The translations under genes were made by a program, and so were the position numbers. The notes below the pieces were generated by a model. That model was not told where the DNA came from. It saw only the letters and a list, made by a program, of their open reading frames with translations, and did no database searches. Positions 240-24,608 of a stretch of DNA of 64,000 bases are shown one piece after another. Numbering within the stretch: the stretch's first letter is position 1; every line of letters starts with the position of its first letter. Source of the DNA: Gnetum montanum (lineage: Eukaryota; Plantae; Gnetophyta); the NCBI GenBank assembly GCA_015680685.1, contig MNCI01001941.1, forward strand, positions 737,318 to 801,317, written 5' to 3'.

Positions 240-2969
240 GATGGGTCCTATGATATCTAGCCCCCATCATTGGAATGGCCATGTAATTTTTGTAGGATGC
301 AACTCAGTAGGTGAAACATGTATAATATTTTCATGACATTGGAATTTATCACACATCTTATCTTTGGCAAGGCAATCTCGTTCCATGCAAGGCCAGTANA
401 ACATTGGAATTTATCAGACATCTTATCTTTGGCAAGGCAATCTCGTTCCATGCAAGGCCAGTAATATCCTAGGCATATGATTTTTGCTGCCATAGACCTG
501 GGAGCTATGTGTCCTCCACATAGTCCTTCATGGACTTCATTAACGATTTTTTATGCTTCTTCCCCACTAATATAAATTAGCAATATCCCATCAAAGGAGC
601 ATTTGTATAAGGTATTATCTCCTATAAGGACATACTGTCAGGCTCGCTTTTAGATCACATCCTTTTGAGTGAATGTCAAGCCCTGTGGGGGTTCACCATG
701 TTGAAGGTAGGCTTTAACATTAGCATACCACTCTTGGGAATTAGTAGCACTTACGGAGGTGACATGTACCGCTTGAGTGATATGGTTTGTGCACTTCGTT
801 ATCGAAGCAGGTAAATTTGTGAATAGGCATGGCAACATGTTAAATGCTAGCATGGCTAAGGCATCCACTATAGTGTTCTTGTTGCATGGCACATGTTGGA
901 TGTCTACCATTGTAAACTATTTCAGTAGACTCTTGGCCAAGTCACAATAAGGCTATAAATGTGAAGCTTTACAGGCATAGATTTCAGTAATCTAGTTGAC
1001 GATGAGCTGGGAATTGCCTCGGACTGCCAAATGTTGGATCTTTAATTCCTAGGCTGCTAAAAGGCCCCTAAGGATTCCTTCGTACTCAACTATGTTGTTT
1101 GTACAAAGGAACATAAAACAGTAAGTGAAAGGTTGAATGTCCCCTGAGGGGAATGTAATGATAGCAGCAACACTACCACCTTGTGTGGTTGAGGTGCCAT
1201 TGAAATGCAAAGTATCTTTGAAGTGTAATGGTATAGGGTTGATGCTATTAACATGTTCGATGGGGAATTCTAGCTCTATGGTTACTTGATCATCGATGGG
1301 TGAGGTTGTGAGCTATGTAGCCATCGCTTGTCCTTTTGTTGATGATTGGGCTACATAGTGTAAATTGAATTATGCCATTATAGCTTTCCATCGAGCTATC
1401 TTTCTGCTTTTGTATAAATTGTTCATGATAGCCCAAAGTACATTGCTCTTGCATATAATGTTAACCTTACTACGGAATAGGTAATGTATCCACTTTTTTA
1501 GCATAAATACTAGGGCAACACAATTTCTTTCTACTTCATTGTACTCCACCTCATAATCTATCAGTGTATGGCTCAAGTAATAAACTGGGATTTCAAAGCC
1601 ATCATCTCTCTTCTGACACAACAATGCTTCGATAGATGTGTCCCAAGTGGCAAGGTAGATTTAGAAAGGCTTATCCCTCTGTGGTGGGTAAAAAATTGGG
1701 AGGTGAAAAAGCTCTATCTTTAAGTCATTGAAGGCTTGTTGACACTGTGCCATCCACTTGAAGTTAATCCCCTTCTTTAGCAAGTGTTGCATGGGGTGTA
1801 ACTTGTTAGTCAACTTTGTTACAAAGCTTATGATAAACTGTATTCTACCTTGCAATCTGCATAATTCTTTAACGTTGGTAAGGGATGCTAGGTTAACGAT
1901 GGCCTTAACTTTGTCAGGGTCCACTCATATTCCAGCTTTCGATACTACAAACCCTAGCATGCATTTGGTTTTAGCTCTGAAAACACATTTATTTGGATTG
2001 AGATGCAAGTCATGCCTGTGACAACGCTTGAGGACTACATCTAGATCAGTGGGATGATCAATAGCTCTCTTAGACTTGAATGCTATATCATCCACGTAAT
2101 CGTTTAGTCTCTCTAAGAGGTAGTCACTGAATATGGACATCATGGCTCATTGATAGGTTATTTCAACATTTTTGAGACCAAAGGACATCATAGTATAATA
2201 AAAGGTTTCCCAAGGGGTCATGAAAGTAGTTTTTAACTAATGCTCTAAATTGATGTGGATTTGATTGTAACCTGAGAACCCATCCATAAAGGACAATAAA
2301 GCATGACCAGCTGTAGTGTCAATAAGTTGCTGAATACTTGGTAATGGGAAGTCATCTTTAATCGTTGCTTTGTTTAAATCTTGAAAGTCTATAAAAATTC
2401 GTATACCTTCCATTTTCTTGGAGACTACAATGTTGTTCGATACCCACTTTGAGTAATTGACCATGTGGATGAAACCTGCTTGATATAGCTTGGTAATTTC
2501 ATTATGTACAGCTAGTGTAATTTTTGGTTTAATTTTTCAAGCCTTTTGATTAACTGCTTTGATACGTGGGTCTAAGACAATGTTATGTTGTATGAGCTGT
2601 AGGTCTAAGCCCAGCAGGTCATTATAGGACCACATGAACACTTTAATGTTGTTTTGGAGAACCTTAGATACGTCCTTTTGTATTTGTGAATCTAGGAGGG
2701 AGCCAAGTTTTAATGTCTTTATTTCCCTCTAGATGTAGTTACAGGTGCTTCGATGAGAGGGTCCTCGATCACATCCCTGGCCTCTAAGTCTAAGGCTTGG
2801 ACCAAATGTTTGGGCCAATCTAGGGATGTTTCCAGGGATACTACAGTGTTGTCAATAGATGATTTCCAGTCTATTGATTCTAAGTTTAGGTGTCTTGTAA
2901 GCTTGCCATGAGGACCCGTCAAGGTTAAAAGTGAATGCAGATCATCTTGCATAGCCATTTTTATCAAAC
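240..2969 (-). pseudogene. Degenerate pol of element A: RT (~1660-2700), RNase H (~1320-1660), additional archaeal-type RNase H (~850-1220), integrase N-terminus (240-~750)
   Basis: RT: IDFQDLNKATIKDDFPLP, SFMDGFSGYNQI, YVDDI. RH: PVYYLSHTL..YNEVERNCVAL. aRH: TNNIVEYEG..GNSQLIVN..NTIVDALA. INT: HEGLCGGH, GYYWPCMERDC, WGLDIIGP. Many stops and frameshifts. Confidence 0.95.
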
Positions 2970-3100
2970 CTATCATAATAAGAAAAAGCCAGGTCAAGTG
3001 ATACTTGTTTGTAGCAACAACATGTAATGAATTTTTGTAAAGTAACAATACAACATAAAATAATCATCAATCGCTGTGTAAAATTTGCAACTCAAAGCTA

Positions 3101-3524
3101 CTAGTTTAAGGTCTTAGTGGACTGTATTGAGACTTGAAATGAATGCTAACATTGCCAGTTTAAGGTTGTAGCAAATCATAACATATTATATAATTTGGTT
3201 TATGATATGGAATGAGTGGTGAGATGCCATATAGGACATGGCAGATTGTTGATATAGTTAAAGCATATGCTAGAATTGCTAATTTAAGGTCTTTGCAGAC
3301 TGCTACTAGGTAGAGTTGAAAGTTAAAACTGCTAGTTTAAGGTCTTTTATGAACCATTAACAACTAGATTTTAAAAGCTAAGATTTGCTAGTTTAAGGTC
3401 TTTGCAAACCATCATGAGGCTACATTGTAGGTTAACGTCCTATGTAAACCAAGATTTCCAGTTTAAGGTCTTAGCAAATCATTAATAGGTAGACTTTGTA
3501 AAGATAGATGGCTAATTTAAGATG
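3101..3524. repeat. Array of 7 copies of motif CTAGTTTAAGGTC
   Basis: Copies start at ~3101, 3155, 3279, 3332, 3388, 3458 and 3512. Confidence 0.85.
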
Positions 3525-3667
3525 GAACAAAATTTTTGGTGGGCCCACTTGTTATTCTGTAGACAATCGCTACGCTAAGGTGTTACTATGACAAAATAGT
3601 GCTACGCTACAAGGGGTATCCCACATTAATTAGGTCATGAAAATGGCAAGTATTTTATTGTTTTGGC

Positions 3668-3675
3668 TATAAATA
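3668..3675 (+). promoter_or_regulatory. Putative TATA box of the antisense gene of element A
   Basis: ggcTATAAATAggg, 143 nt upstream of the inferred ATG at 3811. Confidence 0.6.
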
Positions 3676-3810
3676 GGGGTTTATCCCTAGGTAAACTTGT
3701 CATTTTCATTGTCAAAGCCCAACACCCATACTCAGGGCGTAGCATGATTGCACAGAGAGAGAGCGAACTGGTGTAGCATAGCAATTGACAGGGAATTAGC
3801 AAGCGAGATA

Positions 3811-6800
3811 ATGGCATCCAAAGGTGAACACTAGCACTGAGGACTTGCTAAAGTAGATAAGGTGAAGGACACTCTGGGGCGCTTATCCAAGGCATGCGTT
3901 GAAGTGTAGGAGGAGGCTCTGTCTACTCGGTAAGTTGCTACGTTGCCCTTGTTTTCCAGATGGTGTTATCGTTATTGTGGTAAAATTTGTGTCCACTACC
4001 ACTATTTTGGTTACTGTATTGGCCGCCATGCTGTTATTGTCACTGGTTGATGTATGGATGCTATGCTATGGTTGCATGCAACATCGCCTTAACCACCATT
4101 GTTGAGAATGGTGACTACCTTGTAGTAAGATTTTGGGCAATTCTGAGTGGCATAGTGCATGCTTGACGCAACGTACCATCTTTATGAAGGGTTTAGTTAT
4201 TCGTAAAATTTTTTAGGGTGATATGTGCTTAATCGTAGCATAGCGTGAGCTATTTCGTACAGTAAGATAGGGTTGAGATGATAGGGACATTGAATTTTCT
4301 CTCATCTGTGCTACTTCAAGGCTATAATTTTTTTTTCTTTTTACTGTTACACTTGCTACGTTGCTATGCCTGTTATAGGGGTATGTTTGTCATATTGTCA
4401 TACATCTGCCTATGCTTGTTCATTCACTATCTTGCTACGTTGTGCGTATCATAGTCATCACCCTTAAGCATACATGTAATCGTTATATTGCACACCTGTT
4501 ATGTTGTGGTGTGTGTCATGTAACAATTACTGTAAGGCAAAAACAGTGTTGTTATGCAGTACTGTGCTTAATGGCTATGCTATGCTGTAAGTGCCACTTT
4601 ATAATATCACCTATAATTCTCGACTCTATTTTCTATTAAAGAAAAATTTGCGATCGAGAGAACATGCTACACTACATGCAAAGAAAGGTTATGCTATGCT
4701 ATATGTGAACAGATGATTACACTGTGCTATGTGTAAACTTCACTTGAACATAGTTTCAATGTTTGATGCTTTATTGTGTAGGGTCATGTTGAAGCTCATC
4801 TTGATTGTCCTTGAGATTGTAGGGGTCTTGTGCTTCCTTAGTGAATCGATGGCCAATGTTCCTCCTCCCCATGCATGTGTGGGGTGGCAAGCAGTCTTGT
4901 TCTAGGAGGGTGCACGAGACTTCTTACAATTCCTCCTCTACTATTTTAGTGTGATTGTTTAGTCACACTTATCAGTAGAGATAGTGGTTGCAATTACAAA
5001 AATACTATTTCCCGGGGCAAATTGGGGCATTCTGAAATTTTTGACTAATGGGTCAATTAGGGGTGAGTGAGAAGAAGGCTTCAACTAGTGCCCAAAAGGC
5101 TTGAGGTGCTTAAGTTGGATCTAGGACATGCCTAAGTATAAATGCTATAATTTATACAACACGTTATTCGTTGCCCATTACATGGGCACCTATTTTCAAA
5201 ACCCACCTAGGACCATTTATTATGCCAGTAGGTGAGTTCTATGAGTGTATCTCATCGTGTTGTGTAATCCATGTTACACTAGATAAGGGTGTTAATAGTA
5301 TATATATTTTTTGTATTACCAAGTTTTATGTTGACAGGAATGGTCTTCATGGTGATATAGATGCCTTGGCATTGGCATAGATGGCCTTGCAAGAGTTTTC
5401 CTCAACTGGGAATGTGTGCACCAACATAATAGGCCAATTTGGGGGTGAGTTTAAAACCTACCCAACCTGATATTTCCAATTTTATGAAAAGTGTAAAGAA
5501 GTTGGTTGGTTGGATAGGGAGTGGACATCCCTTAGGCCACTCATCGTTGAAGATGTGCTAGTGGATCTCCCACCATTTCCCATGCCATTTAAACCTAGTA
5601 CGCTAAACTATGAATTTTCTATTATATGTTCAAGAGATGATCAGCTTTTGCTAACTTTTTATTTTTTATTTCTTGAAAACTATTATAGTGGCTAGGAAAT
5701 CCCAAGAGGTCACTATGATCACCTCCATATGTAACAAAACTAACTTTTTTCTCAAGTACGAGGAGGTGGAGGAGACCCAGTGTTGGCTCTGCAATGGGGC
5801 CCCAACCATGCTTGTCCATAAACTTCAAGAGGCTAGACTCATGGACTTATTTTTGGCCATCAACCAAAGTATCCTACCTGTTGAAATACTTTCCCTAGCC
5901 AACTCCTTCTTCAAGAAGGTTGACCGCTTGTGTACATGCATTCACGGTGTACAGGTGGTGTTTGAAATCAACAACCAACTATTCACAAATCTTTTTAGTG
6001 TCCCTTCTAATGGTCTCCCTATAGGAGAATAATCTAAGAAAGATGCAAGCCATCAGGGTAACATTGAGGAGTGGCTAAGGGCGGTAAAGGATCAAAAGGG
6101 GATCTACATCAAGAAGGTCAGGCTAGGGGTGGCCAAAATGATTTACCCTATCTTCCATACCCATGCCTTCCCCAAGCTACTCTCTCAAGGAAAAGTCCTT
6201 GGAGTTGAATAGGCTTGGATAATGAGAGATTTCATGGAAGAGAGAGATCACTACAATTGGGCCAAATACCTTTGCAAAGGCTTGCAAGCTAAAATGGTCA
6301 AACTCCAGAGAAACTTGAGTCCCATTTCAACGTGCACCATGCCTTCTTTATAGCCTACCTGCGGTGTTTTGCAGAATGCTTGTTAGTCTATGAGAATGAT
6401 GTCTAGGTGCTACAGGACTATAGTTAGATTTCCAAACTATGGATTTGCCAAGTCTTTTCTACCACACGATCCCAAGATCTCCTTGAAGATATTAGGGAAT
6501 TATTTTTGATGATGACCAGGGATCGGGTGGCACATGCCTTTTGTGCCTAGGACAGCATGGGAGAGGCACCTCCCATTAACATAGGTAGTGTGATAAGGGG
6601 CGAATGCCTCATTGTAGAAAAAGTGGTGACTAGCTTGCAACATAAGAGGTCCCACCCTACCAAAGAGACTCCCCGTACAAATGAAGAGAGGGGGAAGAAG
6701 CTACAACTCAAACTTCGTAGAGTGCAACCTCTAATTGGTAAGTGTATTTTATTATTTGGCTAATGCTCATTACACTATGCTACGCTAGGTAGCATTGCAC

Positions 6801-7298
6801 AGCGTAGCATCTGTTTCAAGTTGGTATATCTTGCCTACTATAATTATGCTTTATTAGCAGAAGAAGAAGAAGAAGAAGGGGGGGAAGAGGTGATGGCCCC
6901 TAGAACAAGCACAATTGGTGAAGATGAAGAGGTTCTAGCCACAGAGGAAAGGGCCTTGACCAATGAAGAAGGGGCTCAAACCATAGAAGATAGGACCTCA
7001 GCTAGTGAGGAAGAGGCCCTTGTTGATGAAGAGGAAGCCTCAATTGACAAAGAAAGGGTCCCAGCCACTTAGGAAGATGTCCCTATCAATGAAGAAAGGG
7101 CCCTAGCCAATGAGGAAGAGGCCCCCACCAATCAAGAAGAGGCCCCTGCTGATGACCCTTTCGTCGAGTGTAGTTCAATACTGGAGGGGCATATGAATAT
7201 TGAGGATCCTACTATGTTATTAGATCAACTAGAAGGAGAGGGGCTCCATTTTGATGTTGGTGAGTTTGATCACTTGTTTGAAAGTGTATCGATGGGAG

Positions 7299-7358
<60 letters not shown>

Positions 7359-8651
7359 NAGGAGCTTTACACTATCATTTATGTTGTTCATTAGCTTTAT
7401 CATGGTTCTCTTTGCCATGGCTAACATGTTTTACCATGTAGCAGACACCACTGTTGATACATCTGACCCTTCTTTGATCCGCCTATGATCGTGGACCGAG
7501 ACCCCTGACAAATTCACTTTTATGGAGGGGGTGGTTGACGACATGATCGACTTTCTAAAGTAGATTGACCTGGAAGTGGATAAGTTAAAGTTTCTACACT
7601 AGGATTCCTATATTGTTACAATTTCTCTATGTCACTATGATTAATGCTCTTCTATGTGTGGTTGGCAACCTCTCACCTTAAGTGGGACCCCAAGCAAGTA
7701 ATTGAGGTCAACGCTATGCCCGAATTCCCATAGGAGGTAACTGAAGTACCTCGTAACATATATGATGAAGTAAGCAAATGTGCATTATACTCGGCATGCT
7801 CCCTGTGGGAATGCAGGCTTGTAAACGAAGACCTCTAGAAACGGGTGCAAAGGCTCGAGAAGGAGAAGGCTAATCTAACTACTAAGGTGGGGGATCTCTG
7901 ATCCAGGAACAAATTCCTGTTGGCTTGGGATACTAATGATGGTAGTTAGCACACGACCTTCATCAACTATGCAAGATATTGGATGGCCATACGATGCAAC
8001 AATGAATCCACACACGAAATAATCGAATATTACATGCAAATGGACCTTCTAGCTCAAAAGAACCAAGATTGGAAGGATTACAACGCGAAGGTTTATGAGT
8101 GGCGGTAGGCATAGTAGAATCACAAACACATGTATAAAATGGAACATGCCATCTACTATAAATAGTATCATGATGCTTCCATCAAGTTGCATACCTATGA
8201 GGTATTCCTTGATATTCTTGATGCTTCTAGGGCTTATGATAGGTTCATGCAATAGGTGATAGTTAGTGAATCTCCTGAAAGGGAGATGAGTTTTCCTATC
8301 GGTGAGACCACCATTGCCACCTTTTCTCCAGGACCATTAAGATGGACAGCCGTAGAAAAGGAGAAAGTTGCAGCAAACACTGATCTGGGAGATAGGAATT
8401 GGGTTGACATTAACGAGGAGGAGATCTTGCAATGCCTCGTGGCTAGTATGGATTGTATACCTCCCAAAGTGGACGCGGGGCCATCTTAGGTTAGTTACTT
8501 CTTTTTTCTTATTTATGGTGTGATAATTTATTTTATAAAAATATTTTTCGTAGCTCTAACTGATTGTTTTATTTTCTTTGTTATGTAGGATCCAAATGCA
8601 AATGTAGGACCCAATGAGGTAGGGGATGGTGGTGTAGGTGAATACTCATAG
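3811..8651 (+). pseudogene. Antisense 8-exon accessory gene of Tat element A (unknown protein; exon 4 resembles plant-mobile-domain / 'putative plant transposon protein' folds; acidic repeat exon; C-terminal coiled coil)
   Basis: Exons 3811-3929, 4782-5231, 5338-5597, 5689-6737, ~6858-~7300 (end lost at poly-C/N), ~7442-7579, 7669-8489, 8589-8651. GT-AG boundaries (two mutated) give in-frame joins, and the peptides align with the copy in element B. Confidence 0.85.
6925..7155 (+). repeat. 21-bp (7-aa) degenerate coding tandem repeat, acidic (EERALTN/EEEALVD/EEEAPTN...)
   Basis: About 10 heptads visible in ORF 6821-7072 and its continuation past a CAG>TAG stop. Confidence 0.8.
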
Positions 8652-8846
8652 CGTAGTGGTAGAGAGTTTTATTCTTGTCTTTGGATTCTCAAAAAAAATA
8701 AATTTGTAAACCTTATTGATTGATATTTTGAATGAAGGATGGAATATAAAAGGATTTATTTCATTTTGGTTAGTGTTTTGTATTTGTTTTTAGTCTATTC
8801 TTTGTCTTTTTTATTAATTAATTAAGCTCATTGAGAGCATCTCATT

Positions 8847-8966
8847 CTAGTTTTAGGCCATTTCGGGCTATCACTAGTTTTAGGCCATTTCGACCTGTTG
8901 GTAGTTTTAGGCCATTTTGGGTCGTCAAATGATGGTAAAGAAAAATTTTACTAGTTTTAGGCCTTA
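8847..8966. repeat. 27-bp-period array of motif CTAGTTTTAGGCC
   Basis: Copies at 8847, 8874, 8901 and 8951. Confidence 0.85.
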
Positions 8967-9149
8967 GCGGGTCTTTTTGTGATGTAAACAGTGGGTGTAA
9001 TGTGAACAATTTAAAAAATAAGGCAAATGTTAGCGTAAACAAAAAAATATGAAGCAAATAGTGTGAAGGATGAATGTATGGTTGATGTAAGTGGTGATCA
9101 TGTTGGAAGTAGTGTAGTAGTTATGCTAACGTAAGTAACAATCATTCTC

Positions 9150-12100
9150 GTAGCTGCTTCATAACCCATCATGGGCTCGATGATGCATAAGGCTGAGGGG
9201 CTTTGTTGCGATATTCTTCTATATCGCTATCTACCACTTGAAAAGGCAACTCGGTCCACATAGTTTGATTTTCTGAGTCGACATTTTGGGCTAGCACATT
9301 AGCCAAATAAGTAGCCTCAGTGGGGATAGGTGCTTCATTTTCAGAAGGTTATTACTTCTAAACCATGCTCCATCTCAACATTGTTTATTGCTTGGGTGGC
9401 CACTTTGTCACCATAGGTTACCACCTCCCTGCCCACGTAAGGTAGGTGGATCTCTTGATGTATGGATGAAGAGACAGCTTTGAGTTGGGCTAACCATGAC
9501 CTCCCTAAGATCAGGTTAAACCCAGGCATCTCTTCAACCATGATGAATGTCGTGCTTGTGGGGAACTGGTCCCCTGACACAGTTGTTGTGGACAACCCCC
9601 TTTACCACTACCTATGACATGAGGTTGTTGTGGGTTTGATTTAATCAACCAAGCCTATTTTTTCCACTATGGGGAATGAGATGACATTTTTAGTAGCCCC
9701 TTCATCAACGTGTACTCTTTGGATCTTGTGCTCATCAACCCAAATTGTGATGAACAGGGGTACTATTGTCACCCGACCCTTTTCAGGGTCATCCTTGATG
9801 GACTCATCATGGAATGTCAACTAAGTTAGCCATGGTTCTTCAAGCATAGAAGGAAGCATAACCGCATGGATTGCTTTCTTCTCCACCTACATGTTTTCAT
9901 CAATCGGTATCAACATTAACATGTGAACCAAGGCCTCGCATTGTGCAATGGAGGTCATTACCAAGTCATACAAGCTTAAGGTTGTATTCTTTTATTTTAG
10001 AGCCTGTTTGACTTGAGTAAGGGAATTTAGAAGGTCTTGTCCATTTTCTTGTTGTTTGCTACCCTTCTCTTCCTCTATTTATCCTAGGAGATGAATCTCT
10101 CATGGAGGAGAAGTTTCAAGTTTGGGGCTAGACCTTCTTGGGTTGGATGGTGATGATTGTGTGTGCATAGTGCTGTCAATTGTTGATGATGAAGGGGACA
10201 TAGGCATGGAGGAAAAGGGGCTAGGATTGGAGGGACCTAATGCTATACGTTCCTTGGCCATCTTGTCCATTATACACTCTTCCCCTTTTTTTGAACAAGG
10301 AGGCTATGGGGGTGTTTTAGATTTGCTCTGTGTGGCGAGGATAGTTGATGGTTTCGGCCCCCTAATGACAAATGGTGTTTGTGGTGTTACCATGGGTGAC
10401 GACGTAGTTTTAAACATGAAGGGTGAAAGGGCAAATGTTTGAGGGGGAACCTTGAGGATGAAGGGTTGTTGTGGCATCCTTTTTGCTATTGTTGATGCCT
10501 CTATGCTACATTGAGACACATGAATCACAAATGACTACTGTGGTGGTTTTGGATTACTGTCGATGTCAATTGTGTTGATAACATACCTTGCATTGTTGGT
10601 GTTCAGGGGGTCCTTGTAGACATGCATGGATTGATTTTCAGGGCATACAGGGTTACTTTCATCTAGAACCAACTTCCCCTGATCAATCATCCATTGGATG
10701 TCATCTTTTAATGCTAGACAGTAATCTATGTCGTGACCACAAAGTTGATGGTAGTCACAGAACCGTTCCAGCCGAAAGTTCTTAGGAACTGGCGGCTCAT
10801 TGGGCATAGCCAAGGAGGGGTTTCTAAGAAGTTTGCAATACCATTGATGCCATTTGATCACCTCCTCCAACATCTTCTTATGTTGAATATACCCAGCCCC
10901 CAAAAATTACTTCAAAATTTCTGAAGGCTTGACACATAGAGGGGTGTATTTGGAGAGGTCTTTATACTCAAAGTTGGGCTTAGGTTGGGTTGATGCCTCT
11001 GGTGCTAACGTTGAGGGTTGAGCAGCATTATTTAAGCTAGGCATGGGGTTAGTTGATGTTGTGGCTTCTTTTTTGTTGTTGTTGTTGTCGGGTTTGGCCT
11101 TGTTTGCCACGACGACCACCTTGGCTATCGTAGCCTTGCCCTTCTCTTTGTCCTTTTTGACATATGCATTTTTGTACGCAACATAGGTCGAGTCTTTACT
11201 AGCTTCGGCTATGTCTTGGATGATCTTCATTTGGGTGAAAGCTGAGAGAGCATGGGGCTAGGTAGTATAGTTTTAACTTAATAAAGTCATTTACTACCCC
11301 CTTGAAGATAGCCAACAGATGGGCCTCCACGATAGGCTCACCGATCTCATTCAGGGTAGCGCTCCACTGTTGTATAAAATTTTGCACTAACTCCAATGGG
11401 TCTTTCTTGACACTTATCAACTAATCTAGTGTGACCTTTGGCTTTAAATTATACTTGAAGTGGGTCACAAACTAAGTCAGTAGCTCCTCTAGAGTTGAGA
11501 TGAAGATGCATGGGAGTGCACGGTACCAATCTAAAGCTTTGCCTATTAGAGACATAGCAAAGACATGAATAATAGTTTGTAGCCACTACTGCAACAACAA
11601 AGATTCGGATCTAAACATGACTAGATGTGCATTGGGATCACTCTCCCTATTGTATTTTGTGAGTTGGGGGAGTGGCATCCCAGGGGGTAACATGAGCATG
11701 GGAACAAATGGGCTGATGGAGTCGTCATGGTAGAAATCCATGACCTGCACTGTGTTGGATCCAATAAATTTGAGATGTTTAATCTCTTCAGTGAGGGTCT
11801 AGATAAGTTGGAATGCTTGGTCCAAACCTGGGGATGATGTAGATGGTTGTGGGGTTGTAGGGGCAACCATTGTTGATGACATTGTAAGGGTAGTAGCCTG
11901 GCTCATAGGGGGTACCGTTGGGGCTGCTCCTACGAAGGGTGTTGCCTATGCAGTCCACCACCCAGTGGGTGGTGCTATTGAAGCGGTGGCGTCTAGGGGT
12001 GTTGTAGGGTTAGTCACTTGCGTGACTGATGGGGTGGACCACAGTCACATGCTTGGTTGTACCGTTTGTGAGACATGGTATGCTTGGTGGTAAACATAGT

Positions 12101-12930
12101 GTGACATTTGGGAGGATTGTGAAACAAGAAGAGAAGTGGTCGAGGCACACCATGCAGTTGGGGGCAGGGCTGCCATAATGGTAGGGTAGGCATGAACAAT
12201 GGAATGGGAGTAGGAACTCCTTGTAGCTGTGAGGTAGGCACAATGTGCACATACGGCAATGTAGCTGTGACCAGCATTTGGTACGATGACAAGATAGAGT
12301 GAGGAGGGAGAGTGCCTGGGAATGAAACTAAAGGGATAGTATGTTGGTACGCTAAGGGTACAGGATGGCTACCGATGGCTAATGAAAGTGTAGAGTTGCA
12401 GCAGAGTCATGGTAATCATAAAAGAGGTAGATGTAAAACGAGGGTTTGACTGGAAGACCACAGTGGGAGGGATAGTCGTAGGGTAAGTCTAGCCACCATC
12501 CTTGGATTGGGAGTCCAGGTCTTCTTGTCCATCCTAGAATACTTCATCATAATGGGATGCCATGTCCTGCTATTCCCTAGACCTAATCATTTGTATGAGT
12601 TGGTTCAGGACCCATTGATATGATTCGGTTAATGAGATAATGATATCAAGGGTGGGGATAAATTTCCTCTTGTTCCAATGAAGGAACTTGAAGTTATGTT
12701 TGTCTTTGAGTTCTTAGTGATCTAAGGGTAGATTTTCCTAGATCTTTACACAAAGGAAGTCATAATGCTCTGTGTCTTGCACTAATAATTTAGGTAATAG
12801 ATGTCAGATCCTAAGAGACTGGCATGGTGCCAGCACTGGGCTTGGTGGTCACTCGATACCTATGATGCTTTGAGTCAAGAAAGGAACCTCAAGGTTGGAT
12901 GTGGGAACTACGGTTGTTGGCGGAATCATT
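9150..12930 (-). pseudogene. Degenerate gag-protease of element A
   Basis: Gag core (AMSLIGKALDWYRAL, ESVQNFIQ-like ELVQNFIQQW), Tat-type knuckle FCDYHQLCGHDIDYCLALK, protease VHVDEGATKNVI...FNLILGRSWL..VSSSIHQ. Start position uncertain. Confidence 0.88.
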
Positions 12931-12996
12931 TTGCATGATTAAAGGGAAGTTGCAAATGAGAAAAATAGAAATCAATAGATGATTGGAGGCTTTTCA

Positions 12997-13012
12997 TCCT
13001 GCCGGGTTCCAA
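12997..13012 (-). promoter_or_regulatory. Putative degenerate primer-binding site of element A (tRNA-Trp-like)
   Basis: Minus strand TGGAACCCGGCAGGA ~10 nt inside the LTR end. Resembles the complement of the plant tRNA-Trp 3' end with a 2-nt deletion; tRNA assignment from memory and tentative. Confidence 0.4.
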
Positions 13013-13021
13013 AGGAATGGT

Positions 13022-14996
13022 TGTCGTGACCAGTCTACACCACACGATGCGTAAACAACTACGAGGGTATCATGTTTACGCTAGTGGGTGACAGGGTACA
13101 GAAAGCATGTAGGACTACCCAAAGGACATAGAAAGGGCACCGAAAAGGCCCTCCTTCTAGAGCCAAAAACTATTATGACTGAAAATGTTAGTGGCTGGAA
13201 CACCAAGAGGTTTTTGGGTGAACAGTTTAACCCTGGATTTGTGTGAGGACCATGTTAGAGAGAAACGGAAGTGGGGTGCCCTAAACGGTCTGGTTGATTA
13301 GATAGGGACTTAATCATTGTGTCTTAACCTTTCGTAAATGCTTGTTTCATAAGTGAGGCACGTGAAGTAAATTGATAATCAATAAGTGTAAAGTGGTAAA
13401 AATAGTGTGAAACAACGTTGATAGTAAGCAAATAGAAAAACAGACTTGGGTGAGAAAGTGCACCATCCCAAGGTCGTGGGTCTAATCCTTTGCTTTGTTG
13501 AAAGGTGTACAATAGAACACGCAACATGGAAGAGGCACAACTTACACAAAGTAGCATGGTCATAAATCTCTAAATTGTAGAGCCAACCAGCAAACTCAAA
13601 GCCAACTAGAGTGCTAAAAATTGTAGACTATGCTCTCCGAAAGCCAACTTAAAAGCCAATCACCACCCTAGGCTGACCCTTCAAGCATTGTTTGCTGGGG
13701 GTATTTATAGGCCTAGGAGTAGGAGAAAAATGTGTTCTGGATGCCATGTGTCTTGGGCCCCACAAGGTGCAAACATGGCTATACTATGTAGGTGTGTGAT
13801 GCTAGAGGTGAGCTTTGTTATGCTATGACCATACTACTAAAACTTCATGTGCCAAAATCTAGTGTGCTAACAATGCAAGAAAAATGGAGCCTATGCTCCA
13901 AGACTACGTCTTCCTTAATCTTGCAAGTAGGGTCAAGCGTAGGAACAATTTTTGGGGATTGACCAAGGGTATGCAAAATGAAGAAAACTTGCTGATTTTG
14001 TCTGGCAAAGAGATATCAGGATGAGAATAATCATTGCCAAAAAGTTATAGAGCTAACCGAAGACGTCTTGATGCCTCCATGCTAGTGTTGCACTACCCAT
14101 GTTGTTCAGCACATTGGCGTAGCATAAGTAACTGCTCGCTATGCTGTGCTATGGTACGTAGCATAGCATAGTGTAGCCACCGGTCTTGACAAAAACCTTA
14201 CGTAGGAGCTGAGAGCATTTGTGTGAGGATTGGTCAGGCAAAAAACTGAAACTTTTGTCCTCCATGCCAAAAAGCCTTCAAACTTACTAAATTCATCTTT
14301 GAAACATTTCTACCATTTTTGCATCATTGCTACGTTGTGCTACACTATGTAGCATAGCACAACGTAGTAGCCAATGTATCATGCTTCCTTATTCAATCTG
14401 CCATTTTCTACCAAGAAACCTTGCTTGAGGCCTGAGGACTAAGTGGGATAATCAGTTTTGGAGGCTAAAGCATTGCCAAATGCAATCTTCTTGTTGGAGT
14501 CACTTGGCAAAGGGGGGCCTTTTTGTGCTTTGTCCCTATTACACTTTACTACGCTACATAGTGCAACATAGCATAACACCTTGTGTTGGTGGAGCAAGTT
14601 TGCTTGACGGTTGCAACATGGGCAAATGCTTTGGAAGACCAACTTGTCATCAACTTACATCTTGGATGCTTGATTGATCTCTTCAAGGCTTGCTATGTAG
14701 CGCAGCGTAGTATATTTCTATGCTAGAAAACTTGCTGAACTATTTTTCTCATCCCGAACACTTTCAAAAAGTCCTAGCATGGTCCATGGGTAGACTGCCA
14801 GCTAGGTCAATTGTCTGGTTGGGTAGGCTGGAGAGTCTAGCAGACCTGTCAACCTTGGAGATAGAAAACTTGCTAGACTATATAGTCTATCCTTGGTGCC
14901 TACACCATTCTGTTGGCCCATCAACTTGTAGAAATCCTTGCCAAAATTCCAAGACTCTATTGAAGCATGAGGGTCCTAAAATTTTATGGTGTTTCA
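13022..14996 (-). repeat. 5' LTR of element A (~1.97 kb)
   Basis: Plus-strand termini TGTCGTGACC...aaaattttatggtgtttCA match element B termini TGTTGTGACC...aaaattttgttgtgtttCA. Minus-strand TATA (tatttatag at ~13702). Confidence 0.8.
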
Positions 14997-15045
14997 ACTA
15001 TCTATCATCCCATTCACTAGATATCTCTTATAAGACTTAGAATGG
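14997..15045 (-). pseudogene. Fragment of a third copy (G) of the Tat accessory gene, exon 3 continuation
   Basis: Translates SKSYKRYLVNGMIDS; compare B NLIYKRCKDDGTMHS. Joins in frame to 25524 after removing element C plus a 5-nt overlap. Confidence 0.7.
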
Positions 15046-15958
15046 TGATAAGCAATGGAGTAGTCCAACACTCAACCATGCAAGATATGAGTGTTCAAAT
15101 TCAACTAGGTTGAATTCTATGGATAAGGCAATGTAATTATGCTAGTAATTTGTTTGAGTTCATGATCATTGTCTTCCCATGTGAGTTAGTAAAATCAATG
15201 CATGTGGCTTAACTCACTGTGGGGTGTATGATAACTGATGTTACTTTGGCCATTTTACTTATAGTAAACATAAGGTAGATGAAAGTGATTTCTAAATCTA
15301 AGTAAACAACAAATGAATCTAGTCTAGCCTAGGTTATGGACATCTATTCCTAACTCTCTGCACATGTCTTGAACTTATGTAATCACTAGTAGGATTACCA
15401 AGTATCTTGTTACTGGGCAAACCAAGCAATAATATTACTGGGTTATCAAATAATCACACTTTATGCTTGGAATCAGTTGTATCCATTTTACTTAATAATA
15501 GTAGAAATAAATTGCATGGAAAAGTAAATAGTAACTAAGAAAATAGTAATCAGTAGATTAAGTAAAAACATTAAACATTATTCTAGGTAAATAGTAAAGA
15601 AACCAAGTGGATGCTACAATGGTGAAAAGTAATCTCAATATTTATTGCCATTCACACTTATGTCCATGTATAATATGCTCACATAAAGACTTTATACAAT
15701 CACTTCACACCACACTATGGACATACATAGCTAAGTGATAAGTACTAAAATCAAGAAAATAAACTGACAGAGTTTTGCTAAGGTGAAATGAAAATTGTTG
15801 TTTGGACTATGCATCTAAGTGTCATATTTATAGGCTTGCACATGTTTGCAATATTGAATATCCTACATTGTAGCTTATGCCTCAATATCAAGGATCTAAT
15901 ATTGTGGCTTTGGTATTAGATGTATGATATCATAGCCATGTAAAAACTTGACTTATCA
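15046..15958 (-). repeat. 3' LTR of element C
   Basis: Aligns along its length with 24609-25523; 7-bp terminal inverted repeat TGATAAG/CTTATCA. Confidence 0.93.
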
Positions 15959-16229
15959 TATGCCCATGACTGATTAAAAACTTGTCCTTGATTTGAATCA
16001 AAATGTAGATAGAGTTCCTTAAAAAATTAGGAGGTAGATATAGATGACACTAACTACTATGTACATGACTCTTAGTTGCCATAGTGGTGTTTATAAAATA
16101 ACACAAGATATGACATGACACTTTAACAAAAACCAAAAACTTGGTGAAGCTTCATGTAGCCTTATGTAGTTCCAGGTGAAATTGGCTCCTCCATTGATTA
16201 CTTTCCCTTTTTGTGAGGCTTTTGAAATT

Positions 16230-19200
16230 TTTACTAGTTTAAGAGCACCTGAAGTTTCTCCTCTTCTATTCTTGGGTCATGTACTATCCATGCTTGTTGT
16301 CCATTATGCAATGGAGTAGGTACATCCCATGGGCATGGTAGCTGTAGAAACATTTGATTTGACTTAATGTACCAGGTTGTGAACTACCTTCTTTCTTCTT
16401 TAAATGCTCTATCCTTTTTACATAGTTCATGATAATCTACTAATCATATGGCCAAGTTTGCTGCTCCATCCTTTTTTCCTTGGTAGCTAGCCTTCATTGC
16501 TTCCAGTTCAAAGTTTGCTACTTGGAGCTTTTGCAAAGCATCTTTATGATCCACAAACTATTTTTCATACAAATAATATGTGGCTACTACTTGCTATTCT
16601 AATTCATTCCTAGGCCTACTTGCTATCAATATGGTCAAGTTGGCATAATGGAGGCTAGTTAACCCTATATATTCTTTTAGGTCTTTAATCTATAGGCCTT
16701 TAGTTTTCACTTCCTCTTGATGTACAAGGGCATACCTATCCAAAATGGGTTTTTAATGAAAATTCTATGTTGACATGGTGCTAATTTTGGCTTTGGTTAT
16801 TTAGATCTCTTTCTTGTTAATTTTCTTGTACATGCCCACATGATCTCGGAAGTGTTATTTGAGCCTCTCATGTTTCTTTTCCTTATTTTTCCATGTGCTT
16901 ATCTCAATGGCTAACTTTCTATGGATGACTTGTACCTCCTTCATTGAGAGGATTGAATTTTTTCTTACATGGTGGCTCATGTCTTAGTTGATCCTTACCC
17001 GTTGTTCCCTTAACTGGTGGATGCTCTCTTTTAAAATGTTTTTCTACTTTTTGATAGTAATCAACCTCATGTTATCAACAACAATTTGTTTATTTTCCTC
17101 TTATACTATGGAAGTGCCTTGACATGTGCATATGTTTGTGCTTCAACTATGGAGGCATTCCATACCACTTTATCCTCCTCTGTCGCCATTCATTTATTTT
17201 GTTCAATCAAATGGTTCATCTACTCTATCCTAAACTATTCTATTTGATCAAGCACAATAAATTTTGTAGGATCTCTTTGTTCAACTCTTAGGGTTGCAGG
17301 CTCTTCTTGTAATTTTAGAATTTCATTTTCTACATGCTTTACCCTTTTCACTACCATAACTAGTTTTCCCTTAGTAGTAATGAGCCCAAACTATATTGTA
17401 GTGACATCACTAGGGATGTTGAAGAGTGTTTTCATGAATTTCCTAGTCTACAGTAGTCTATTAAGCACATCCCTACGGTTAGTAAGAGTCATCGAGGTTT
17501 TGGCTAACATTTGAACATCTCTAGCTCTAGTTAAATTAGCTGATTGCATAACTAATACATTACAAAATTTTTTAATGTGATTGGTGGTCACCTCTACTAC
17601 TCCTACACATCCTAGTGTTACATTACCACTAATGTGGCTCATTCTCTAGTCTTAAGCACCACTTAGAATAATGCAATGTTTTCTAGAGATCTGTTGTGAT
17701 CATTGATCCCTTTCTCATGACCGTAGTAAAATATATCCAGTTGCTAGATCTACTAAAATTTTCAGTTGGATGGCATTATCAATAACTCTATAAAGGATGG
17801 CCTCCTCCCTTATTCCCTAGCTAATGGTTTTTATAATTTGTTGTAGATGACTTATTGATGATCTCGTGGTGATGGTGGTGAAACTTGCTATTATTGTTGT
17901 TCTTGTTGCTCCTAATGTTGCTACTAATTTTTCTCTTGTTATTATTCTTGTTCTTCAGCCTAATCTTTTTTAGGTGGTGTTGGTTTGAGAAATTTAGCAT
18001 ATGAAGCATTTTGGGCTTTCCTGGGAATGTCATTAGTGTATCCTAGGATTCCAAATTGCCTATACAACTTTTTGATAAGGTAGGAAAATGGAACTATTGG
18101 CTTTCATACCTTCATTTCTTAAAACCGCCTCTAAATTTCCATAAAATAGAGTTGTGCAAGGTTAGAATTGTATTTTTCCATTAGGATCACACTTTCTATA
18201 GCCACATAAGTGGATAGTTAGTTAATTCCTTTTGTTAGAAATAGGTGATAAGTGCCAATATTGAATTAGATTCTTTCTTCTAGGGTTAGCTCGTTGTAGC
18301 CCTTATCTTCTTTTCCATAAGTCCATTTTGGACATCATTTTTTGATTTCAAGATCTAATTAGGTGGATAGATGTGCTAACCTTGCCCCTTCATTGGGTAT
18401 ATTTAGAGCTTCTACAATTTCCTTGATCAAGAATGAAACTAAGATTCCTCAAATGTTAACTGTGGTACCCTCTTCCTTGTTGTGCTAGAACTAGTAGGTT
18501 TTCCCAAGGTATCATTCAACACTATTAAATAGGATAGGCCATAGTGGTGATGCCTTAAGTTATTTCTTTACTACTTCTAGCATAAATTCCATGAATGGGC
18601 CAAAGTCCATCTCCATAATGACATGTGGTTAAGATGGATCTTTCTTGAATAGCTTGGAGGCAATCATGTGACAATGTGACATGTTTTCCTTGCACTAGTA
18701 GTTCTTCTGTCTCTCCTTGGACTGATTGTCCCATAGTAGGAGTCTCTTGATGAATGCTAAATGATTGAGCTTTCTACACCTTTTTTCCTAGTTCTTATCC
18801 TTCTATTCGGCCTCTGGCTTGGCCTCTTAGTCTCTTATTTACAGCTTCTAAGAGTCCTGCTTGTGATCCTCTCTTTGGGATCACCTATAATCATTAAGGA
18901 ATTGGAAATCATTATAAGGTGTTTTCTAATTTTTATAACTCCCTTCCTTTCTCATAATTTTAGTGGGATCAAGTTCTTAGTTGTTAGGGTTGCAGAGTTA
19001 GAAACGTTTTCCAAAAAGTTATCCAATAGGTATTATTTTCTTTGTGACTTCTCATAGTTATCTATTTGGTTCTTATTTATGGATCATTATGATTGGTTAT
19101 GGTTCTTTAAGAGTATTATTTGAGTGTTATAGCTTCCTCATGATTACTTCTTATTAACAATTTTCAAATTTTACCTCATACTTACCCTTAAAGTACCTTT

Positions 19201-19257
19201 CGAGTGTTAGAATTTTGTTGAAATGTTAGCTAAGACTTTCTCACTAGGACCTCCCAT
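16230..19257 (-). pseudogene. Degenerate Athila env-like / accessory ORF of element C
   Basis: LWPILFNSVE(R)YLGKTY(Q)F(Q)HN..VNI(R)GILVSFLIKEIVEALNIPNEG, homologous to the D ORF, followed by Q/E-rich and coiled-coil-like segments. Ends approximate. Confidence 0.7.
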
Positions 19258-21129
19258 GAATAATATGAGCACTTCATGATTAAATAGGTTAAGAAAGCAT
19301 GAAAATCAAAGCAATAATTGTCAAGTTATGACATAGTAAAGCTAGGAGGTTAGAGCTCAAATTAGAGAAGAAAATTCAAAAAATCTCCCTTGTGTTCAAA
19401 TGAAAATGATGGAAAATTTAGCTAAGTCACCATGTATATATAGGTTTTATATGACCTGATATCATGAATTTGATATCAAAGCCAAAATGTTTTCACTTTT
19501 CATAAGTGTGATGGGAAAAATTGATTGTTTTGGATTTCTAAAAGGTTAAAAGTTGCTTAGAGGGTTTGGATGACAAAGATATGCATATTTTTATCAAAAT
19601 TTTATCATTGAAAGTTTATAAAGAAGGAATCTCAGGGTACGGAATTTCATAAGATGGATTAAGAAGGGTAATGAATTCATGTAGTGACAATGGATAGTTT
19701 AAATGATGTGGAAAGTATTTATTCACATATTTTGATGCTCAAAGGTTCAAGATGATGTGGAATCGCTTGGTAGGTATGAGATACAATAGTTATAGAAGTG
19801 AATCCTCCCCAAAGTAGGCTCTAGCCTATAATGCCCTTGTATAACCATGCCTAAAATGTCCTTAGGCATTGAAATAATTTAATGTAACACATACCTATTT
19901 AGCAAAACACACATGTTAGTACCACCAAATTAAGAAAATAACTCTATGTTACATAAAACCACAAGTTATAACTATTCAAATAGTAAGATGAAATGGAATT
20001 AAAAGGGATTGCAAAAATCGAGATGTGAGGTATCTTATCATAGGAATAATGAATTTGTATATTTTATTAGTGGTTATAGTAATCACTAGCCTTTCTATCC
20101 AGGATTCAAACCAAGTCCAAACCACATTCTAGTGACATTGCATCATTTCATCTCTTGGAAGTACAATCGTAAGACTATCAATGTTGAAAGAAGTATTGTC
20201 ACTTGGTGTATTGTCCAAGGAAGGAGTTTATTTATGGAACTATGTTTATTTTTAAAATTTTTGAAAAGCCACCTACGTTTAGGCATGGTTAACATGTCTT
20301 TCCAGCGGGATCCCTACAAATTTATTTTGTGCTCTTTTATTTTTTATTTTTGTCAACCTTTCAAGGAAGTAGTTATTTTACTCTTACTCCCATTTTTCAT
20401 TAGATCTACAAAGATATAAGAAAATCTTAGCAAGATGATAGAACTCACAATAGTAATCCAAAAGAATCCATAAATCCCCTTGATGTTTGATCCTTTACAT
20501 TCCCACTTGGTTCTTCACTTCTCTATCTAGGCATAATGATCACAAGTTTGTTGTTAGTTGTATGATGGAAAAAAGTATCATTATGGTCATGGTAAGAACC
20601 TTTTATTAATGGAATAGATGAATGGATGATGTGTGATTATTGTTCATATAATTAGTCCCTTATGACTTGATAACATAGAGAAATCTTCACCTTGGACTAC
20701 ATCTTACCTTTATTTGTAATGTGTCTTATTAGTAATCAAAATTATTTACAAAGGGCTTGAAAAAAAAGTATGAAAGAAATAAAAAAGATAGTAAGAATTG
20801 TGAAAAAGGTGTAAAGAATGAAAAATGTTAAAAAATGAAAAATGCTAAAGCTGCAACAGATATCAAAGAATGTCAAAAATTTAAGAAATGAAAAGTATCA
20901 AAGAATAAGAAAACATTAAAGAATGTAAAAAAGTAAAGAAATTATAAATTGGAAAGAATTGTAAAACAAAAAATAGAAAAGAACTTATTAATTTTGAACT
21001 TAAGATAGGACATCTCCCCCATGACTGAACTCATGGGTGAGTGTTTGGAAAATGCTCCCTATATCTCTTGTATCATACACTCTAAGTGGTTTACTTACCA
21101 TCTTTATTGATTTAACTTTTCCATTATTA

Positions 21130-24120
21130 TCCTAGGTCATTCTAAGGATAATGGAATCTTGATTGTTTAAGTTCTTATTTTCTTTTTCTATTGATGTATG
21201 ATTATGGTTTAATAGTTTCATTTTTGGGTCCTTAGTTGGAGTCATCTTCTTAAAATGGGAGTTAATAAGTGGATTAGATTGTTCCATGCATTTTCCAAAT
21301 AATTTTTGGTTCTTAGTTAGTGACCATGAGATGTTTTTTGATTTTTGGCTCTTGGTCTTGCTTGTGCACACACTTTTTTTTCATTATTATTGTGGATGGG
21401 TATGGTAATTGTGTTGGCATTCTGAATGATCAGTTCACAACTACATCCTTTTCTATTAGTAGTAATGTATGGGATTCATTGTGTGTGCATGGCTCCATGC
21501 TTATCCTCCTTAGAGATCTTAATAGATAGATCCCTCATACTTAGCTTAGCATCAATTATGTTAATCCATGCTCTCCCTATGATAATTGAAAATTCTTTGT
21601 TAGCATCTTTCACATAGATTATCAAAAATTTTGCTAGATAAGACCACCCATTGATAGTGCTCACTATCTCATCTATCTATCCCAAAGGAATGGCAACAGA
21701 TTGATCTACAAGCTCCAACCTGATGTGGCACTCTTTCAATGGTGGGTAGCTTCCATGGTTGATATGTTTTATAAGAGATCAAATTTATCCCAGAATCTGA
21801 GTCTAACACAGCATTGCATAGTAGATTTCCAATTACTTGTAGATAAATCAAAAGAACTCCTACATCAATTCTCTTCTTAGGGAGTGGTCCTACCTTTATC
21901 TAGTATGTAATGATTTCAATGAGCATGATAGTTTTCTTATTTGGATTGAATGATTAAAGAAGATTTTTGGTAGTAAGAGAATTTATGGTAGGGGAATTTG
22001 GTCTTGATGAAGCTCTAATTCTACTAACCTTTTCAAGTCTTGTCCTAAGGAAAGGATGTTTCTTTATTTGGCCATTAGTGTTGATCATAGGATACTCTAT
22101 TTTAATGTTCACTACCCTTGTAGCTTTTCTCTGCTATGGTTGTGATGGAAATTCACCATGCATAGTAGGTGGTGGCACTAGTGGTAAAGGATTGAAAGGG
22201 AAATTTGATGGGCTAGCTACTAGCAAATGTCTGTGAGGACTTTGATACATCCTTAAAGTAGTAGGTCAATAACATTCTACTATATAGTAAGGAGAATAAG
22301 TTTGAATTGATGTGTTTCCTATAGATATTAGATGCTAAACATAATATTCATAAGCATCTTCTTGAATATATGAATATTGTGGCCTTGGCGGTGGTATTGC
22401 CCATGTCTATGATTGTTGCCACTACTACTAATATTAATCTTGTGGTTGGGGGTAGACTCTGCTTGGGTAGTATGCTGGCTAGTAGGGTTGCTTGATATTA
22501 CCTTGAGGATAAGGTAGTCTTTTGGGCATATGCTTCTTGACAAAGCTCCAATTGAGTGCATATACCCCAGATTCTTTCAAGTGGACCATAACATGACAAC
22601 ATCCCTTAGGATGTTCATACTAGCACACATTGTATCCTTCCTTTTCCTCTAAACTAGAGTTAGTGGTATCCTTCAATGCTTATAACTTTTGAGTTCATAA
22701 TCCCTTTTCTTCTTTCTTTCCTTACCCCTATTAAGTGCTTGTTTAGTCATTTCTTCCATAATATTTAGGGCTACAACAAATGTTTCATCCATTGAATCCT
22801 ATACATTCTCTACCTTAGTTGCTATATCATTGATTTATTTTTGAATGTGTAGAGTCATTTTCTAGATAACATCTTTCATGGTTTCATCCTCTTTCTTGTC
22901 ACATATTCACACATCTCTCTTTCAAATTGATGGATCTTTATTATACTCCTCACCTGATTCCATCTTTCTTAGCTCATCTTCCTCTTTTTCCACTTGGTTA
23001 ATTGGCTTTTGAATGTAATGAGTGATCAATTTTGATAGCCTACCTTAGGCGTAAACACCAAGAGTATTTCTAGTTTTTCTTCATAGCCCATCTATAATGT
23101 GCCTAAGCTATTCCCTTGGTGAAAATCCATGGCCTGGGCATCTATACAATAGTGAATAGTATTTTTCCATTACTACATCAAGGGTCTCATGAGTCCCTTG
23201 CTTCAATCCATGCATTTATTTTCTTAAATTAGATACTTGTGAATAATTTTGATATTTATCATTGAAGAGTACAAACATGGTACTCTAGAATCTGATTGAT
23301 TTAGGTTCTAATGACTTATACCAGCTCTTTGCCTCTTTCACAAGTGTTCTAGGAAATAGCTTCAATTTTTTCCAATCACTTTTGATATTTTGAAGGATGT
23401 AGAAATTGTGGAAATCTTGAAAGTGATGTTGTGAATCAACATTATAGCCACCTTCAAATCTCAACATGTTCATGTCTAGTCATTTGATTCAGCTATCTCT
23501 CACATGCTTGGTTGGTATATGGATAGCTTTGTGAATGTTTATCATGCTTTAGGTTTCCATGAAGGGTTCATCATCATGGTTAGATTCATATGATCTGTTG
23601 TAGCAGTGACCCCTTTTGTGCTCATACCTTTCTTGATCATCTCTTCAATCCCTTCATCTTCTATGTTCATATTCATTATCTTCTATTTGAAAGTATCTTG
23701 AATATTGGTCATAATGGTCATGTTTCCTCCTTTCTTCCCTACCATAGTCCTAGTACTTGTGATATGTTTTGTCAAAGTTCATTGATGATCATGATGAGGT
23801 ATATGAGGTAGTAGAAGAATGATGCTATCTTATTCTCCTTTCATGACTCTTATATGCTTCTTTGTAGGATTTGATAGCAATCCTTAGCCTTGAGTCCCAC
23901 TTATACCTTGAGTCAATGGCCTCCCCCTTAGGTGTCTCTGCTAGAGTGGAATTAAGCTAGGCTTTGATAGGTTCCTCACATATGATGATAGGTATTTTTG
24001 AAGGCTCCTCATGGCTTTGGTGAGGTTTCTCTAAAATAAATCCATCAACATCAATTTCTTCTAAGATAACAAGAGTGTTTAATTGCTTCCCTTTTCTGTG
24101 TACATGTCCATTGCATCATC
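21130..24120 (-). pseudogene. Degenerate gag-protease of element C
   Basis: KLKLFPRTLVKEAKSWYKSLEPKSI (retrotransposon gag), NAVLDSDSGINLIS and FSIIIGRAWI (aspartic protease). Confidence 0.85.
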
Positions 24121-24587
24121 TCTCCTTATCTGCTTCTTTGTGGATTCATAGGGTCTTGTCATGTGCTATGTCACATGATATCCTTCCTAGATTTGGTTCA
24201 AATGCAATCCCCATAAGGTAATTTAAATCATGTTAACTACTGCATGTTTTGGAGCTAGGACTATGTTACCTTGCATGTTCCTCCATCTCATTTAATTTTC
24301 TTAATGAAAGATGAAAGTGAAGTCTATATGATAAGAATCAGTGTGATCATAAGTGATTCTTATTTGCATTGGCATCCCCCATTCTTCTTCATTAATGATT
24401 CTATCATTACTTCTTCTTATCTCCTTAGAAGGTGGTGATGTATCTTTGTTTAAGGTCATGTTTGTGAATTAAGATGTTGATTAAGAGAATGTAACTTATT
24501 TGGGTTTATTTAAAAACATTAAGATTTTGACTTTGGGTTTCTAATACAACAAACTTTGGAAAATCAAATATTAAGCATACATTGACT

Positions 24588-24607: not shown

Positions 24608-24608
24608 A

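Follow-up and report, generated by a model that had tools for sequence, protein, structure and literature searches.

Segment A (5689–6737, plus strand) is exon 4 of a decayed multi-exon gene that runs antisense in a Tat-type Ty3/gypsy retrotransposon, between the protease and RT of that element. The 64-kb window, that is, the whole stretch of DNA analyzed, is a nest of decayed LTR retrotransposons, and the one that carries the gene is referred to here as element A. The novelty that stands is one of layout within a known kind, with a spliced gene running antisense between protease and RT, together with a candidate target motif. Should only the position and the splicing hold, the finding amounts to a known kind with an unusual layout. 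The function of the extra ORFs of plant retrotransposons, long labelled "env-like," is described as an open question (PMC7264820, PMC6317226). The first-pass annotation had taken 5689–6737 to be exon 4 of an antisense gene, and this was borne out: the segment is bounded by AG and GT and is the fourth of five phase-compatible exons.

The minus-strand domain order of element A, as judged by Pfam, is gag-PR, a spacer, and RT-RH-aRH-INT. Gag (10535–11759; Retrotrans_gag, E 0.049, with a zinc-knuckle-like motif) and protease (9200–10000; Asp_protease, E 0.085) are separated by ~6 kb from RT and RNase H (1400–2970; RVT_1, 1e-18; RT_RNaseH_2, 1e-20). An additional RNase H (aRH; 830–1201; RVT_3, 2.9e-15) lies between RH and the start of the integrase (220–700; Integrase_H2C2, 1.1e-4), which is truncated by other sequence. 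The protease matched two Tat-type pol loci, L026 and L030, by tblastn (E 9e-9 and 1e-7), and the best of the pol loci retrieved for comparison were 38–53% identical to the element. By the aRH in its pol and its RT-RH-aRH-INT order, element A is a Tat-type Ty3/gypsy element. The domain order of element A is that described as Tat "structure #1," reported in hornworts, clubmosses, ferns, some gymnosperms, and angiosperms (PMC10508981). The gene, in plus orientation and antisense to pol, fills the PR-RT spacer and is therefore not at the env position; the env-like ORF that had been proposed for A is instead this gene between protease and RT. A 65-base duplication around an N at 399, with a similar one at 60428, is likely an assembly-gap artefact.

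Tat elements are known to carry extra ORFs, with PMD in gymnosperm lineage III and Ogre and Transposase_28 in Retand (PMC4408406, PMC6317226, PMC11963269). In other Tat elements, PMD is found in eORFs that are often antisense and have a coiled coil behind the domain (PMC4408406), and those with PMD or Transposase_28, sense or antisense, are placed before gag or after pol (PMC4408406, PMC6317226, PMC5418596, PMC7264820, PMC11728184). A resembles them in belonging to the aRH clade and in having an antisense accessory gene, adjoining tandem arrays, and a coiled-coil-like stretch (by eye in A); with Ogre it also shares a gag-PR set apart from RT. Whereas the extra ORFs in the accessible portions of these reports lie ahead of gag or in the interval that separates pol from the 3′ LTR, the A gene is located between PR and RT with five exons or more, and unlike them it matches neither PMD nor Transposase_28. 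A literature search, with most subscription papers and supplements outside its coverage, found neither a spliced antisense gene between PR and RT nor a structural union of env-like ORFs with PMD. None of six eORF terms occurs in PMC13468544, and 10.64898/2026.08.24.746577 does not mention retrotransposons.

The exons of the gene all lie on the plus strand. A TATA-like box (3668–3674), a putative promoter element, is located ~140 bases upstream of the first ATG. Exon 1 (3811–3929) runs from this ATG to a GT donor; it is the least certain exon, and its counterpart in the second copy of the gene (element B, below) was not identified. Exon 2 (4782–5231) opens with a hydrophobic 19-mer (4783–4839) that is conserved in B, and exon 3 (5338–5597) is supported by its match to B and by junction phases. 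Exon 4, for which splice ends, phases, and homology to B agree, contains motif 1 (5937–6014; strand, helix, L-x-x-P-x-x-G) and motif 2 (6249–6284; a helix starting H-Y-N-W-A). It closes with a basic patch (6644–6721) that is basic in B too and that, by eye, may be a nuclear localization signal. Exon 5 (6861–7259), acidic and of low complexity, contains a 21-base tandem repeat. Beyond it, additional coding sequence falls within 7444–8489 as a short and a long stretch; their boundaries are not fixed, they match B at 41266–42098 in protein, and the long one includes a part that looks like a coiled coil by eye. All four junctions of the five-exon model are AG/GT and phase-compatible, with boundaries that were picked from splice-like sites and with exon 3 shifted by one base for AG/GT before the phase check. 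Five stops and a single change of frame, near 6323–6344, interrupt exon 4; the first frame, with two stops, runs to about 6340 and is followed by a second frame with three. Broken segments were translated with X at stops. A run of 58 C adjoining an N (7300–7357) is likely an assembly-gap artefact.

Element B provides a distant copy of the gene. Its RT-RH-aRH-INT (30661–33758, minus strand) has an RT ~60% identical in protein to that of A, and the matching plus-strand gene is located upstream of this RT, at 38892–42100 as delimited by protein matches to A (exon 4 at about 39771–40832). The protein matches between A and B are collinear and on the plus strand, in exon 2 (E 1e-8), exon 3 (E 0.28), exon 4 (6e-15 and 5e-5), and the long 3′ exon (3e-16). 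No match between the two antisense genes was found by blastn. Over five stretches, third-position identity was 0.25–0.37 and second-position identity 0.57–0.66, values that the protein-guided alignment pushes somewhat in that direction. When five junction ends were examined in B, a candidate with the phase seen in A turned up at four, the exception being the exon 3 acceptor. The gag and protease of B were not found within the 64-kb window, and the position between PR and RT is demonstrated for element A only. A gene kept in related elements under protein-level selection is what an accessory ORF should look like, and the A/B comparison supports the view that segment A belongs to a once-selected accessory ORF of a retrotransposon.

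The same comparison bears on the idea that the gene is a nested DNA transposon or host-gene insertion in the PR-RT spacer, carried as passive cargo. The multi-exon structure does resemble MULE accessory genes such as VANC, and 1, 4, and 2 contigs of three DNA runs join 3412 to 8847, leaving out the gene altogether, though with support from only 22 letters of repeated motif. Yet A and B keep the place and orientation of the gene at an RT identity of ~60%, with near-random third positions and retained protein similarity, and neither a transposase match (Pfam) nor a long inverted repeat was found around the gene of A. We consider passive cargo very unlikely.

The stretch from 2600 to 9900 is high-copy. 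It was matched by 44,084, 48,818, and 46,827 contigs in the three DNA runs, with all 30 bins covered. Depth was 3,544–16,320 in the exon-4 bins against 614–1,373 in two intron-1 bins; by the tool's own warning, contig depth over this stretch is not a copy number. At the first stop of exon 4, >99% of the matching depth differs from the window, and this stop is therefore private to the copy analyzed. RNA yielded 83 reads in four runs at 90% identity, 75 of them only 90–95% alike, and 86 reads in one run at 80%. No spliced joints were seen in either set, at a depth too low to say much.

Introns on the antisense strand escape splicing of the genomic RNA and can thus be carried through reverse transcription. 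Those of this gene would survive retrotransposition by their location on the strand opposite the genomic RNA, and the gene itself would be made from its own TATA promoter. RT (minus) and the antisense gene (plus) begin head to head, ~840 bases apart (2970–3811), with one motif array and the TATA-like box between them; a divergent promoter in this interval, serving both, is possible. Expression of RT-integrase past the 6-kb insert might then depend either on that shared promoter or on splicing from the sense RNA in the manner of Ogre, in which a spliceable intron is reported to separate gag-PR from pol (PMC4408406). Both A and B have an acceptor-like site (near 2970 in A) and in-frame methionines just before RT. 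Past the protease, the sense strand yielded no strong donor, which makes the divergent promoter equally possible.

Arrays of an 11-base motif, AGTTTWAGGBC, flank the gene. The first (3103–3470, plus strand; four exact copies and six with one mismatch) lies between the RT start and the promoter of the gene, and the second (8849–8963, plus strand; four exact copies) between the 3′ end of the gene and the protease. The window contains 11 matches where 0.26 are expected, all on the plus strand, eight in A and three in B, and none in the other four regions. The pattern was derived from A, and B is the independent part: its three matches (30568–30607 and 34332) compare with 0.08 expected, and none of 100 shuffles reached three. 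The two spacers share the motif although they have no blastn similarity, and looser copies occur nearby in B. For another candidate DNA motif no enrichment was seen (6 occurrences where 2.75 were expected, with 8/100 shuffles). More tandem arrays lie in or beside the spacer of B, at 34458–35706, 38329–38526, and 42379–45521 (units of ~181 bases, 38 bases, and 1.65 kb). Arrays are reported to be common in Retand elements, with a function that is not known (PMC11963269). That Tat internal regions often contain tandem arrays for which no binder is known speaks against reading those of A as protein targets.

This arrangement recalls VANC, the DUF1985 protein of VANDAL MULEs. VANC21 is reported to bind a short motif whose arrayed copies share one orientation and lie in the non-coding DNA of the transposon that encodes it, and the VANC signature is described as same-orientation motif arrays, diverse exon structures, and repeat-rich variable regions (PMC5735166). 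A shares with VANC a multi-exon accessory gene, a one-orientation motif array in its own non-coding DNA, and a repeat-rich variable region, and within the window the short-motif arrays are confined, as with VANC, to the family that encodes the gene. VANC differs in residing in DNA transposons, in being reported as dicot-specific, and in its motif; A has no Pfam match to DUF1985, the VANC domain, and binding of the motif by A is a candidate activity.

Our preferred reading, offered tentatively and quite possibly wrong, is that the gene of A is a broken, intron-containing Tat accessory gene whose product was likely a nuclear protein that would bind the flanking arrays and help keep the element's own copies active. 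The exon-4 domain would then be a very remote member of a PMD / DUF1985 (VANC) / Transposase_32 group, acting on DNA or chromatin; this kinship, suggested by a resemblance seen by eye, is the weakest inferred step. Binding, if true, would mean that sequence-specific anti-silencing reaches beyond DNA transposons to include LTR retrotransposons, and the conserved accessory protein with its candidate 11-base target beside it, in a very high-copy element, makes a testable pair. A broader version, in which a VANC-like self-protection module inside pol encodes a predicted sequence-specific DNA-binder for its own arrays and the same PMD/DUF1985/Transposase_32 superfamily supplies the "env-like" ORFs of Athila- and SIRE-type elements, seems to us unlikely; if true, those ORFs would be chromatin regulators, not envelopes. 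A predicted fold common to VANC and the PMD of MAIN/MAIL1 has been reported (bioRxiv 10.1101/2024.09.27.615353; PMC13547354), and section 10 of PMC13547354 does not link the Athila domain to them.

The first-pass annotation had joined segment A to four others by a common hydrophobic pattern. All 12 of the peptide motifs searched are present. Those of A span 5937–6284 and those of B 40043–40360 (both plus strand, by motif search). On the minus strand, C is a sense ORF remnant (17999–18697, motif at 18448), D is a sense ORF past the integrase, at the env position (59500–60330, motif at 59976), and E has a weak Transposase_32 match (50949–51608, motif at 51464). Smith-Waterman scores of 189 for A against B (z 34, 0/500 shuffles) and 274 for C against D (z 62) identify two clearly homologous pairs at the sequence level, and the remaining pairs among A–E reached z 1.6 at most. 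The best stretch in hhalign of A/B against C/D was motif 1, at a probability of 0.65% and E 0.088. Local hhalign of the same groups without context pseudocounts chose another stretch, which 32 of 100 shuffles matched; overall, column shuffles reached the observed cross-group scores in 32, 36, and 90 of 100. Anchored global tests of eight cross-group pairs gave z −0.5 to 2.0, against a maximum of 2.95 in 60 controls. Profile-profile z was 2.0 for A/B against C/D (37/1000), −1.7 for A/B against E, and 0.3 for C/D against E, against a maximum of 3.35 in 27 controls. These cross-group tests are low-powered, with two decayed rows per group. Thus the motifs exist and two pairs are homologous, and the likeness across groups that completed the proposed five-way pattern is within the control range. 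Among the lineage labels, Tat is firm for A and B only, while Athila for D and SIRE for E are not firm, the former depending on an integrase motif that we take to be of Athila type and the latter being only indirect.

These results also suit a different account, in which a genuine Tat accessory gene of an unrelated orphan family was acquired separately from those of C/D and E, three acquisitions in all, and the five-way pattern is a common strand-helix-Pro-Gly motif noticed by eye; the product of such a gene would most likely still be regulatory. Every cross-group test inside the control range and the lack of any database relative favor it, as does the diversity of plant Ty3/gypsy eORFs, reported as 314 sequence groups with 21.4% of proteins matching a known domain (PMC6317226). 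Against it, the two motifs occur in the same order throughout, with a spacing of 85 residues in A/B, 79 in C/D, and 93 in E (hand-chosen anchors). Motif 1 of A–D was co-aligned in three MAFFT runs, as was motif 2, and motif 1 also in one hhalign alignment; in a four-way alignment, A–D line up collinearly through motif 1 and motif 2. The P-x-x-G of the pattern is absent from E, whose motif 1 was in register in one of two MAFFT runs. Given also the low power of the tests noted above, we regard the orphan family as a live possibility that we lean away from.

Profile searches gave A and B no relatives. The two-motif layout of A–E resembles what we take to be the PMD and Transposase_32 consensus patterns. 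No piece of A, B, C, or D matched PMD, DUF1985, Transposase_28, Transposase_32, or ATHILA in Pfam, and the check proposed at first pass, PMD and ATHILA profiles against A–D, returned nothing at the cut-off, in what is a low-power test. Pfam sees little in these copies, as element A's own gag and protease score weakly, reaching just E 0.049 and 0.085. E matched Transposase_32 (PF20167) at E 0.02 and 15 bits, under the cut-off of 45. The suggested likeness of exon 4 to PMD (PF10536) therefore did not materialize as a profile match at cut-off for A or B. What survives of the wider PMD/Athila likeness is the sub-threshold Transposase_32 match of E; in these low-power tests, no profile or structural similarity of A or B to PMD, Transposase_32, ATHILA, or C–E was found. 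Transposase_32 has been linked to Athila ORF1 (PMC11728184). With Transposase_32 and ATHILA ORF-1 (PF03078) proteins, which are sense ORFs lying next to gag or else past pol and short of the 3′ LTR, D shares the env position and E a weak PF20167 match; A and B, by contrast, have no match and are antisense, spliced, and inside pol. The host PMD-C proteins MAIN, MAIL1, and MAIL2 are products of host genes reported to be associated with promoter DNA motifs (PMC5418596; bioRxiv 10.1101/2024.09.27.615353); their kinship with A is a proposal only, with no similarity detected.

Structure-based and larger sequence searches were similar in outcome. The predicted folds are too low in confidence to bear on kinship (pLDDT 31 for A and 40 for D), and fold searches with these models gave no match at E 0.001 or better in the viral library and a best Z of 3.8 for VIA. 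A sequence search of the PDB returned chance matches only; the VANC21 structure is reported to have been solved (PMC13547354). No A/B relative was found by HMM among 1.84 billion protein representatives, where the single match, a bacterial repeat protein, was rejected as a relative. Word-based protein searches with A, the A/B alignment, and the ORF of E produced nothing usable (with A, longer proteins), the Atlas had no usable match for the ORF of E or a stop-free piece of D, and NCBIfam matched 0/6. A metagenome scan with A/B produced 262 pattern matches, of which none was confirmed. Scans for related elements with intact extra ORFs gave 18 metagenome loci at 27–40% identity and 14 short loci in genome contigs, and none in viral contigs; within the metagenome and genome loci, matches to A–E fell only in the RT antisense frame and were rejected as chance. 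An intron-containing PR-RT gene escapes ORF-length and domain screens, which may explain the absence of relatives from protein collections. As a separate observation, 14 contigs filed as bacterial genomes (L019–L032) contain plant-type retrotransposon RT fragments, apparently through contamination; the pol frame of L030 is open for 1553 codons, and a gag-pol frame in L025 spans 1346.

The opening of exon 2 raises the question of a membrane protein. Its hydrophobic 19-mer has a hydropathy of 2.76 in A (4783–4839) and 2.33 in B (38893–38949), and its frame is backed by codon-position identities of 0.63, 0.84, and 0.42. It contains lysine or arginine, plus glutamate, and could be a membrane anchor or else a buried helix or hairpin. 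If an anchor, it would suit an accessory product held at a membrane, whether an analogue of env or a factor that tethers particles to membranes or plasmodesmata, with exon 2 as the anchor and exon 4 soluble; the conservation of the stretch near the N terminus in A and B speaks for this, and some extra ORFs of Athila elements are reported to contain a single transmembrane helix (PMC11728184, PMC7264820). However, exon 4 lacks any stretch of transmembrane type (its highest 19-residue hydropathy is 1.37 in A and 1.44 in B), nothing in exons 3–5 or the long 3′ exon exceeds 1.44, the basic patch and the long acidic exon suit a nuclear protein, and the gene is antisense and away from the env position. 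We judge a membrane-anchored product distinctly unlikely. Retroviral env, too, is the third gene of an LTR element, and A has its one hydrophobic stretch; env is nevertheless read in the sense direction, follows pol, and has its membrane anchor at the C terminus, whereas A is antisense and inside pol, has acidic and basic patches, and carries its hydrophobic stretch near the N terminus, with no C-terminal transmembrane stretch found. The earlier proposal of a nuclear or chromatin protein in place of an envelope is thus favored by exon 4 and its basic patch and disfavored by the hydrophobic start of exon 2. D and E have hydrophobic stretches at 1.84 and 1.92.

The remaining segments belong to other elements of the nest. 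Segment C lies in an LTR-bounded element (15046–25523) with LTRs ~84% identical and, by eye, gag- and protease-like remnants. No RT or integrase match was found in it, and it is probably non-autonomous yet retains an ORF at the env position. The ORF of D runs on for several hundred codons (57600–60330, minus strand), with a long C-terminal part that is coiled-coil-like by eye and no Pfam match. The 3′ part of segment E is included in a direct duplication (47155–56420) of a 5.3-kb unit, 85% identical, whose second copy stops where the D element starts. Part of this duplication matches, inverted, 26708–27128, beside a copia-type remnant.
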